Shown here: positions 45,001-48,000 of the stretch, one piece after another
Layout of the letters: every line of letters starts with the position of its first letter
Position numbering within the stretch: position 1 is the first letter of the stretch
Virus record (IMG/VR): IMGVR_UViG_646311923_000012
Origin: a virus
Lineage: Duplodnaviria; Heunggongvirae; Uroviricota; Caudoviricetes
DNA: 64,000 bases
Direction: 5' to 3' (one strand)
Made by a program: the position numbers

Positions 45001-48000
45001 TCTGCATGTCACAACGTGCATCTACGCCATCAAACCACGAGAAATAATCAATTATTACGCAGGTATCGTATTAATTGATCTGCATCAAATTAGCGTAAAA
45101 GCAACTTCAGATAATACAAATCAGCAACACTGAATACGGGGCAACATTATGTCATCAAAGAACAGAACCCGCAGAACAACAACCCGCAACATCCGATTTC
45201 CAAACCAGATAATTGAACAAATTAACATCGCTCTTGACCTGAAAGGTTCAGGTAATTTTTCAGCGTGGGTTATTGAAGCCTGCAGAAGAAGATTAATTAA
45301 TGAAAAATATTCTCAATTTGTACCCAACAAAGACAAACACGACCAGAGCACCTGTTCAGACAGGTTTACTTAAACGACTTATATATGACACAAAAAGCGA
45401 CCACTAAAGTCGCTTTTTCTTATGGTAACAGGCAATAACTCTCTCAGATATTTTTTAGCATTTTTTTGACCGCGCGTTTCCGGACGTATTCTGTTCTCCT
45501 GTCCCTTTATATCGTCGGAATACCCGCCGCTCTTCAAATCCCATTCCCAACTCAGAATGTAGTCTGTTGACCGCTTGTTTTATTTCGGTCAGGTTCACCG
45601 GTGAAACCGGAGTCCGGCGCGCCTTACGCAAACACTCTGCTCGTTTCTGTGCCGCCACTTTTCTTTTCTGGTCATCACTTAGCTGTACCATCACTTTTGC
45701 CCATCGTTCAGCTGCTCTCCGGTACAGTCCTTTTTTCTCCAGACATTCTGCCACGTGATCATGTAGCATAAGTGACCTCCGATTATCTACAGACTGCCAT
45801 CCTGAATTTACCTTCCCTTAATGAAATAACAATAAAAAACAAACCACGCAAAAACAATAAAACAACACACAAAAAAACTAAATAATAAACAAAAATAATC
45901 ACCTTATTTTATTATTTTTTGAGGGAGCAATTACTGAACAAAAAACGCTGACTATATACTCAAAACCAAACAACTATTCTGCCAATCAGGTATCATGGCA
46001 ACACACGGAATTACCGTGTTTTTGCCTTCTCTGCCCATACAATACGGGCATATACTTCATTCTCTATTGTAATATTTCTATCCATTTGCCCCACTCCATT
46101 TACCTGTAAATAATATTCAAAATATTTATCACAGAAATCGTTTTTGGCCATGAACTGAGCACACTATAAAGTCCGGAACTGACTCTTTGTTAAATTACCT
46201 TAACGTTACCAGTAACACCTTCATAACAAAACATCACGGTATACACTGGGTACGGATATATTCCTGTGCTCCTTCCAGTTGCTTCTGCATTGCCATCAGC
46301 CGTTCTCTGAGGATGAAATAATCCCGTTCAGCGGTGTCTGCCAGTCGGGGGCCGGTTGCATTATCCACGCCGGAGGTGCCGGTGGCTTCACGCACGGTAC
46401 CGGAGCAGGTGGCGTTGATCCGCAGGCGCTTACGACCAGCGGCAACATCAGCACGCAGAGTTTCATTTTCAGCTCTCGCATCGGCTAATTCCCTCGAGTA
46501 TCTGGCATCAAGTGCAGCGACATCACGCTGGCGTATCTGCATATCAGTAATTGTCGCGTTCGCCAGCTCCAGCTCACTGGCTTTTTTATCGCGCTGCTCT
46601 TTGTAGATGATGGCGTGATCACGGTAATGATTCAGCCCCAGACTAAGCACACCACAGGCTACCAGCAGGACAATAATCACCACACACAGAACACGGTTCA
46701 TATCCCCCTCACCCCACCAGCCATGACAAAGTTAAGACGCGCCAGGCAGTGGAAAAGCAAATAGCAACCAGCATTAGTGAAAATGAAATGCCGACGATTA
46801 CACAGAGGATCTTCGCCAGCGTTATGAGCTTGTCTGACATGCTTAATCCTCTTCACGATTTCAACGCAATGACCAGTTTTGCCAGCCCATACAGCATCGG
46901 AGACACAGCAATACCGACCGCCACCCACTTAATAGCAAAAGCCAGCGCTCTGCTGACGTCATCAGTTACAGGCGCTTTCAGTTCAAGGCCGTTTTTCATA
47001 GTCAATCTCAACAGAATTCGTTTATACTTTCCCATGTTCTCCCTTGCCTTACTCAAGGTCAGAAACACAAAACCCCGTTTGCGGCCAACAAACGGGGTTT
47101 TACTTTTATTCACTTAGTTTTTGCCAGTTCGCAGGATTTCGTGTTATCCGCCAGTGTGAGCAAACCGCATTTTTCAGCAAAATATTCTGCTTATCTGTCA
47201 ATTCCCCAGCACGCCAGCGCGCTCTCCTGGTCACGCCGTGAAACCTGACCGTAGCAGTTGTTTGAGCGAATACGGCAGTCTCTGCCACCGTCCTTAATCC
47301 ACCAGCGAATCGCTTCGCAGGCACCTTTTAGATCACCTGCATTAATCCGTCTGTAAAACGTAGACGGGAAACACTTACCGGGGCCAATGTTATAAGGACA
47401 AAATGACGCGATACCCGCCTTCTGGGGTTCGGTCAGCGGTACTTTAATATTGCGCTCCACCCACTCCAGCGCCTTATCACGTTCAATGGCGTTAACCTGG
47501 TCGCATTTTTCCTTCGACAACTTCATGCCCGGGACGACAGGTTTACCATCCACTCGGGTGGTACCGCGGCAGATGGTCCAGATCCCCGCACCATCACGGT
47601 ATGCCGTGGTGTGGTTACCTTCTTTTTCGTCAAGAAACTGGTCGAGGATTTCAGGCGCAGACGCCCCTGCACCAATCAGCGCCAGAACGGCAGCCGACAG
47701 GCCGTATCTGATTTTTGCGTTCATGGATATTTATCAGGGTTTATCGATTTCAAATCCCTGGATATGTTAAGTCTTCAGGCCAGCGGTGGAGTCTTCAGAG
47801 AACCAGTAATTATTCCCGGTAGTTTTCCTCTGTAGGTTATCAACACATCCTGCGCCTCTAAAATTACGGGGCGCTTTTCCGGCAACGGACCATCCCCTTC
47901 ACATAACCCGGCAGCAACATCCATGAAAAACTGCTTCGCCTGCTTTTTCGCCTCAGCTTCGTAAAACTCCAGCGTGGCACCTTCAGTACGGTCAAGACTA

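Follow-up and report, generated by a model that had tools for sequence, protein, structure and literature searches.

The group 1 Pch proteins activate the LEE, or locus of enterocyte effacement (PMC4764244, PMC6265319). PchA binds the LEE1 regulatory region and lowers and remodels its occupancy by H-NS and StpA, which leads to activation of ler, the LEE and effector genes (PMC4764244), and the group 1 pch genes are required for full LEE expression and adherence (PMC6265319). PerC, the product of the third gene of the perABC operon on the EAF plasmid of enteropathogenic Escherichia coli (EPEC), belongs to the same Pfam family and likewise activates ler/LEE1 (PMC5073101). In enterohemorrhagic E. 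coli (EHEC) and related Shiga toxin-producing E. coli (STEC), Pch proteins are master switches through which the prophages that a strain carries are coupled to adherence and to type III secretion by the LEE. The present analysis concerns a pch gene, and the AT-rich DNA upstream of it, in a 64,000-nt stretch of a Caudoviricetes virus (IMG/VR record IMGVR_UViG_646311923_000012). This whole stretch is referred to here as the window, and all coordinates are window positions. The gene and its surroundings comprise the following features, one of them a short open reading frame (ORF).

45455-45769, minus strand: pchA-type gene, 104 aa, ATG start, Pfam PerC PF06069
45770-46233, minus strand: Rz-pch intergenic gap, 464 bp, the promoter and leader region of pch
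45811-45920, minus strand: hypervariable core of the gap, T-rich on the sense strand; 21% GC over 110 nt, with 55% A and 19% C on the plus strand
46011-46151, minus strand: 46-codon ORF, most likely not a gene
46234-46701, minus strand: Rz spanin gene, 155 aa, Pfam Phage_lysis E=8.4e-49; upstream neighbour of pch and last of the lysis genes

The locus almost certainly represents group 1 of the pch genes (pchA/B/C), as an allele of the pchA type that is carried as a moron cassette in the late region of a lambdoid prophage and subject to the control described in the literature. The 104-residue product matches the PerC model over its full length, with residues 1-89 aligned to model positions 1-89 of 90 (E=3.8e-44, 149.3 bits against a cut-off of 22.6). 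Over all 104 residues it is 100% identical to PchA of E. coli O157:H7 Sakai (ECs_1091), 99% to PchB and 98% to PchC, and its RefSeq label is PerC family transcriptional regulator (WP_001303878.1). The identity extends beyond the gene: when the 861-bp block from the Rz stop codon to the terminator is aligned with the Sakai pchA locus, 4 of the 863 columns differ, one of which is a single T in a T-run. Variation across alleles of the pch coding sequence (13 synonymous and 9 non-synonymous changes) carries a coding signature. The near-identical 104-aa protein, together with the lambdoid late-region position directly downstream of Rz/Rz1, places the gene in group 1.

A preliminary description, made from the sequence, had named a PerC/Pch-like regulator here and stated that pch-type regulators activate the LEE in EHEC. 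PerC-family similarity is indeed present along the whole domain, and the literature agrees on the second point (PMC4764244, PMC6265319). The gene, the function of its protein, its prophage location, its paralogue family and its control by a small RNA (sRNA) are already known, and the sequence is close to the reference allele. Two points are marginally new: the non-coding behaviour of the 46-codon ORF, and the combination of hypervariable sequence with conserved composition in the T-rich tract. No relative of Pch with a solved structure was found, even at E<=10. Residues 7-47 weakly resemble NF033650, the ANR (AraC negative regulator) family of NCBIfam, below its threshold (E=0.046, 13.6 bits against a cut-off of 32), a resemblance that is probably due to chance. 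ANR proteins are also small and helical, with links to H-NS.

Comparison with the three Sakai paralogues further defines the allele. The Sakai pchA gene lies in prophage Sp4, also directly downstream of Rz/Rz1, and its T-rich tract is of the same allele type as that of the window. In Sp4, IS629 and ISEc8 border the segment that runs from holin through lysozyme and Rz to pchA, and this segment has the reverse orientation with respect to the terminase genes, whereas the window has an intact Rz-pch-ylcI-cos-Nu1-terminase order on a backbone that resembles Sp14. PchB (ECs_2182, Sp11) and PchC (ECs_2737, Sp14) differ from the window protein by 1 and 2 aa, respectively. Their loci share with the window the protein length, the slot between Rz and the packaging genes, the proximal leader, the Shine-Dalgarno (SD) sequence and the predicted anti-SD sequence, and the gene order of Sp11 and Sp14 is the same. 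The differences lie upstream: the pchB-type allele is strongly divergent in the T-rich tract at ~45811-45920, and the pchC-type allele differs at several positions of the tract and within the 46-codon ORF.

More distant relatives share less of the locus. PerC is shorter than the window protein and plasmid-borne, without an Rz-linked AT-rich leader and without a prophage context; PerC-family genes on E. coli virulence-type plasmids reach ~44-48% identity to Pch residues 2-88 (tblastn). A PerC-family gene of E. albertii encodes a protein of 91% identity, and only ~70 nt of proximal upstream sequence, the SD and the anti-SD region can be aligned; this locus lacks an Rz neighbour, the 46-codon ORF and any homologue of the T-rich tract. 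For the PerC-family gene of Escherichia sp. MOD1-EC7003 (77% identity), the alignable part comprises ~26 nt upstream, the SD and the anti-SD region, on a contig that holds ~155 bp of upstream sequence.

The genomic neighborhood agrees with the assignment. On the minus strand, the genes run in the order holin, YdfR/DUF1327, lysozyme, two small ORFs, Rz/Rz1, the 464-bp gap and pch; beyond pch lie a bidirectional terminator, a convergent ylcI-like gene, cos, Nu1 and then the large terminase gene. In each locus inspected, the block likewise follows Rz/Rz1 and precedes ylcI-cos-Nu1, and the typical annotation is a 'PerC family transcriptional regulator' adjoining a 'lysis protein'. This interval is the classic moron slot of the lambdoid late region. 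In lambda it is filled by bor, and in the DLP12 prophage of K-12 by borD, ybcV and ybcW, which lie between rzpD/rzoD and ylcI-nohD. These bor-type morons are lysogenic-conversion cargo as well; their proteins and functions are unrelated to pch, and borD and ybcV are in the opposite orientation.

Of 5,426 complete E. coli genomes, 672 contain the pch block, the median copy number being 3. The 464-bp gap used alone finds the same 672 genomes (1875 vs 1880 places), which indicates that gap and gene travel as one cassette. The distal gap was rejected as an element independent of pch, being never found without the gene and absent in E. albertii. Exact matches to the window block occur in non-O157 STEC, for instance O103:H2.

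Control of translation is the best described level of pch regulation. According to published reports, pchA translation is blocked by an intramolecular SD/anti-SD structure in the mRNA, and Hfq-dependent pairing of the sRNA DicF at the anti-SD under low oxygen frees it (PMC7769764, PMC7873438, PMC7308464, PMC9438474). DicF regulation of perC is not implied by the pchA case. The window contains the corresponding elements.

45776-45780, minus strand: SD sequence GGAGG of pch, 6 nt upstream of the ATG
45670-45681, minus strand: predicted anti-SD inside the pch coding sequence, +89 to +100, UAAGUGAUGACC
45666-45672, minus strand: 7-nt perfect complement ACCAGAA to the 5' end of DicF (nt 1-7), +98 to +104, overlapping the anti-SD
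16226-16277, plus strand: DicF sRNA gene, Rfam RF00039, 75 bits (gathering score 48), E=1e-14

In minimum free energy (MFE) folds of the full-length transcript, the anti-SD UAAGUGAUGACC pairs with GGAGGUCACUUA, which extends from the SD through the A of the AUG, in a helix of 10 bp with a 2x2 internal loop. Full-length folds begun at three different 5' ends all predict this helix, and in them the SD has an unpaired probability of 0.06-0.2 at three of its five positions and of 0.6-0.7 at the other two. On the SD side, natural variants are G-U compatible in the pchB-type and E. albertii alleles and give two mismatches in the Escherichia sp. locus L009. The distance between the DicF gene and pch is ~29 kb. 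DicF sits in the immunity/early region of a second lambdoid prophage, arranged in tandem, so that pchA and the published activator of its translation are found in two neighbouring prophages. Activation of the pchA mRNA by DicF was reportedly described by Melson and Kendall in 2019 (as recounted in PMC7769764). The DicF prophage also carries an integrase gene (19658-20677) and an exonuclease gene (16920-19370).

As judged from these sequences, translation of pch would be held off by the SD/anti-SD helix, with the anti-SD at +89 to +100, and would be released under low oxygen when Hfq-bound DicF pairs at the anti-SD through its 5' end, predicted to contact +98 to +104. Control by the sRNA would then act at the ribosome-binding site (RBS) and at about codons 30-35, not via the AT-rich tract. 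The preliminary description had taken the AT-rich leader to suggest sRNA-dependent control. Such control of pchA is published (PMC7769764, PMC7873438), but it runs through the helix between RBS and coding sequence rather than through the tract, so the expectation holds and the place given for it does not.

The gap itself is compositionally exceptional. Its GC content is 33%, against 51% for the window, and at scales of 110, 150 and 464 nt the lowest-GC segments of the 64 kb overlap it, with <0.1% of segments as low. Plus-strand A-runs are found at 45834, 45850, 45859, 45871 and 45891. A ~460-bp AT-rich, A/C-rich region between Rz and cos, with poly-A/CA tracts at 45830-45900, had been described before and is recovered here in each respect. 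The gene that separates pch from cos, of the YlcI/YnfO type, had gone unmentioned. No feature is annotated in the gap in any listed RefSeq record.

Two promoter candidates for pch lie in the gap.

45973-46001, minus strand: distal sigma-70-like promoter candidate TTGCCA-17-AATAGT, 9/12 matches; would give a ~196-nt 5' untranslated region
45805-45832, minus strand: proximal promoter candidate TTGTTA-16-TAAATT, found by eye, 8/12 matches, below the scan threshold; would give a ~28-nt leader and leave the T-rich tract as DNA upstream of it

The proximal candidate belongs to the ~70 nt upstream of pch over which E. albertii can still be aligned. In published work, butyrate acts on PpchA through Lrp (PMC7279287), pchA expression responds to NtrC/sigma-S (PMC10714755) and to Fur status (PMC4090186), and the SOS response and prophage induction enhance the group 1 pch genes (PMC6265319). 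On this basis, pch transcription would start at a promoter of its own in the upstream region, responding to butyrate-Lrp, sigma-S/NtrC and Fur status. The consensus scan found no minus-strand terminator-like site in the gap, and because none lies between Rz and pch, SOS induction may reflect read-through from the antiterminated late operon. The fast-evolving AT-rich tract is suggested by its sequence to be regulatory DNA upstream of or around the promoter, possibly acting like an UP element and/or as a platform for H-NS, Lrp or another nucleoid protein, and is probably neither coding sequence nor an RNA gene.

The AT-richness typical of an H-NS-silenced (xenogeneic) promoter is present (21% GC for the 110-nt core and 33% for the full 464 nt, where the window has 51%), and composition alone makes H-NS silencing of the pch promoter plausible. 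The H-NS link documented in the literature examined is displacement of H-NS by the Pch protein at LEE1, not silencing of pch itself, and no chromatin immunoprecipitation (ChIP) table with pch loci was found in the supplements of PMC4764244.

Several observations weigh against this account of the locus and its control. The LEE lies outside the window, and the regulator's target is therefore an assumption based on the strains with identical sequence; activation of LEE1/ler and of adherence by the window copy would follow from what is known of the identical Sakai protein. In a 161-nt fragment, the SD:anti-SD helix is absent from the MFE structure, and the fragment folds no better than shuffled sequences (z=-0.97). 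Compensatory double substitutions for the helix were not seen among the natural variants, which show only G-U-compatible single changes. The energy of the whole-length DicF:pch duplex (-48.9 kcal/mol) is not significant, compared with -41.7 +/- 3.2 for shuffled DicF (z=-2.3) and -44.2 +/- 5.3, with a minimum of -58.7, for DicF on random segments of the window. Being ordinary against these random controls, it was rejected as evidence and the 7-nt seed at the anti-SD was retained: in DicF pairing, the seed and its position are alone informative. Promoter- and terminator-like sites in the gap are no more numerous in the consensus scan than expected from shuffled sequence. The distal and proximal promoters are both candidates for the transcription start. 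Finally, no report of H-NS binding to the pch upstream tract was found in the literature searched.

How the gap varies was analyzed in an alignment of 83 full-length copies, drawn from Sakai, three other genomes and 80 IMG/VR contigs, which collapse to 53 distinct sequences. Diversity per site is 0.005 in the pch coding sequence, 0.02-0.04 in the distal gap and 0.149 in the T-rich core, which thus evolves ~30x faster than the coding sequence. The core occurs as 29 distinct alleles among the 53 sequences, with length polymorphism of T-runs (e.g., 7 vs 8 T) and, in one allele, a 41-bp deletion. These alleles cluster into pchA-, pchB- and pchC-type groups, the window belonging to the pchA type. 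In all of them, the most distant ones included, the sense strand contains 42-57% T and at most 11% C. This pattern is the one expected for DNA constrained in composition rather than in sequence, although slippage-prone mutation alone could contribute.

It is possible, if unlikely, that the core is a composition-constrained and rapidly diversifying control module instead of a passive spacer. If so, paralogue-specific expression could be set through occupancy by H-NS, Lrp or LrhA or through UP-element strength, and slippage in the T-runs could give heritable differences between copies. If the tract were transcribed, an (ARN)n Hfq landing site, AAAAAAUAAUAAAAUAAGG, could serve the DicF response.

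The opposite view, that the tract has no regulatory role and is junk at a moron recombination joint, with pch expressed mostly by read-through of the late operon, is doubtful. It would account for the tract being the fastest-evolving segment, with its indels and deletion allele, and it fits the lack of a terminator-like site from Rz to pch and the rise of group 1 pch genes upon SOS induction (PMC6265319). Against it stands the T and C content, which is held over 29 otherwise divergent alleles. Furthermore, a native PpchA promoter fragment gives butyrate-responsive expression outside the prophage context (PMC7279287), and uninduced lysogens both express pchA and regulate it (PMC10714755, PMC4090186).

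The 46-codon ORF had been noted before as a minus-strand frame starting at ~46151 without a clear RBS, and the present data concur: the 20 nt before its ATG (CTTTATAGTGTGCTCAGTTC) contain no SD. That it is a real small-protein gene co-transcribed upstream of pch, which would make the leader a two-gene operon, is very improbable. The frame is open in 50 of the 53 distinct alleles, the ~230 nt around it are better conserved than the T-rich tract, and it matches a PHROG family of unknown function and exactly the same length (phrog_2157, E=1.5e-36). A tblastn search of GenBank phages with the ORF returned only one near-identical fragment, and the PHROG match is therefore taken to reflect ORF calling on the same DNA.

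The pattern of variation speaks against translation. Polymorphic sites fall 9/12/6 on the three codon positions, the third being the least variable, and the variant alleles number 5 synonymous against 24 non-synonymous; the corresponding numbers for pch, taken from this alignment, are 13/9. A frameshift is present in two alleles, and another has neither the start nor the stop. No Pfam or NCBIfam match was obtained, neither PGAP nor the Sakai annotation calls a gene there, and the ORF is absent upstream of E. albertii pch. The ORF was rejected as a gene on the codon-position and frameshift evidence, despite the PHROG match, and is most likely a chance ORF.

An independent sense or antisense sRNA gene in the gap, one candidate being a ~100-nt plus-strand transcript from a promoter-like site at 45886-45915 to a hairpin and T-run at 46003-46029, is hardly credible: the two sites are correctly ordered, many Hfq-bound sRNAs are encoded in EHEC prophage late regions (PMC4104026, PMC13502914) and the predicted fold of the gap RNA is somewhat more stable than that of shuffled sequences (z=-2.4), but such sites are as frequent as in shuffled sequence, pchB-type alleles differ at the putative -10, which falls inside the hypervariable tract, single changes without compensation disrupt the hairpin in pchC, the pchB, A25 and O121 alleles have it in altered form, Rfam gives no match up to E=1 in 43000-49000 and none at the gathering score in the gap, the Hfq-CRAC (cross-linking and analysis of cDNA) study supplements contain no pch, ECs1091/1092 or Sakai-coordinate entry, and HnrS, a known multicopy sRNA of prophages, has its loci in Sp9/10/12, whereas pch is carried by Sp4/11/14. 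An sRNA in the gap was accordingly rejected, there being no Rfam match and no conservation of the plus-strand promoter/terminator pair. A match to the integration host factor (IHF) consensus was likewise absent from the gap.

The remaining features around pch are those of a lambdoid late region.

48330-48124, minus strand: class II holin gene
48119-47775, minus strand: YdfR/DUF1327 gene
47724-47191, minus strand: lysozyme gene; the two small ORFs lie between it and Rz
46296-46481, minus strand: Rz1, nested in Rz, with a lipobox-like LVVSAC
45392-45418: bidirectional intrinsic terminator common to pch and the convergent ylcI-like gene, a perfect hairpin AAAAAGCGAC-CACTAAA-GTCGCTTTTT
45149-45373, plus strand: YlcI/YnfO (DUF3950) gene, convergent with pch; Pfam DUF3950 E=1.3e-17, NCBIfam YlcI_YnfO_N E=1.6e-8
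44938-44949, minus strand: lambda-type 12-nt cosN cohesive-end sequence, the exact reverse complement of GGGCGGCGACCT
44245-44754, minus strand: Nu1, with the large terminase gene next

The terminator is unchanged in 7 of 7 aligned loci; its hairpin is not among the terminator-like sites listed by the consensus scan. A ylcI-type gene occupies the same position in DLP12 of K-12, next to nohD. The cos site at 44938-44949 was assigned with GGGCGGCGACCT, the lambda cohesive-end sequence.

At the tail-fibre end of the same prophage as pch sits an EspF-repeat gene (21811-22563, plus strand) for a type III effector resembling TccP/EspFU/TccP2 (Pfam EspF E=2.4e-110, four repeats). Its presence fits the literature view that Pch regulators travel together with type III effectors (PMC3378721). 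Upstream of it, near 21680, is the second most AT-rich 150-nt stretch in the window (26% GC). The intact pchA-type copy, the nearby DicF gene and the TccP-like effector at the prophage end are useful for annotation and strain characterisation.

Other RNA features mark the architecture of the window. Matches to the STnc100 sRNA occur twice (1294-1466 and 50618-50790, both minus strand), as do tRNA clusters (2239-2487 and 51563-51812, both minus strand), and these duplicates mark the late regions of two tandem prophages. A sok antitoxin RNA of a hok/sok-type module (56107-56281, minus strand; 113 bits) lies in a prophage early region, and an ALIL pseudoknot (63603-63719, minus strand; 121 bits) indicates an IS3-family insertion sequence near the end of the window.

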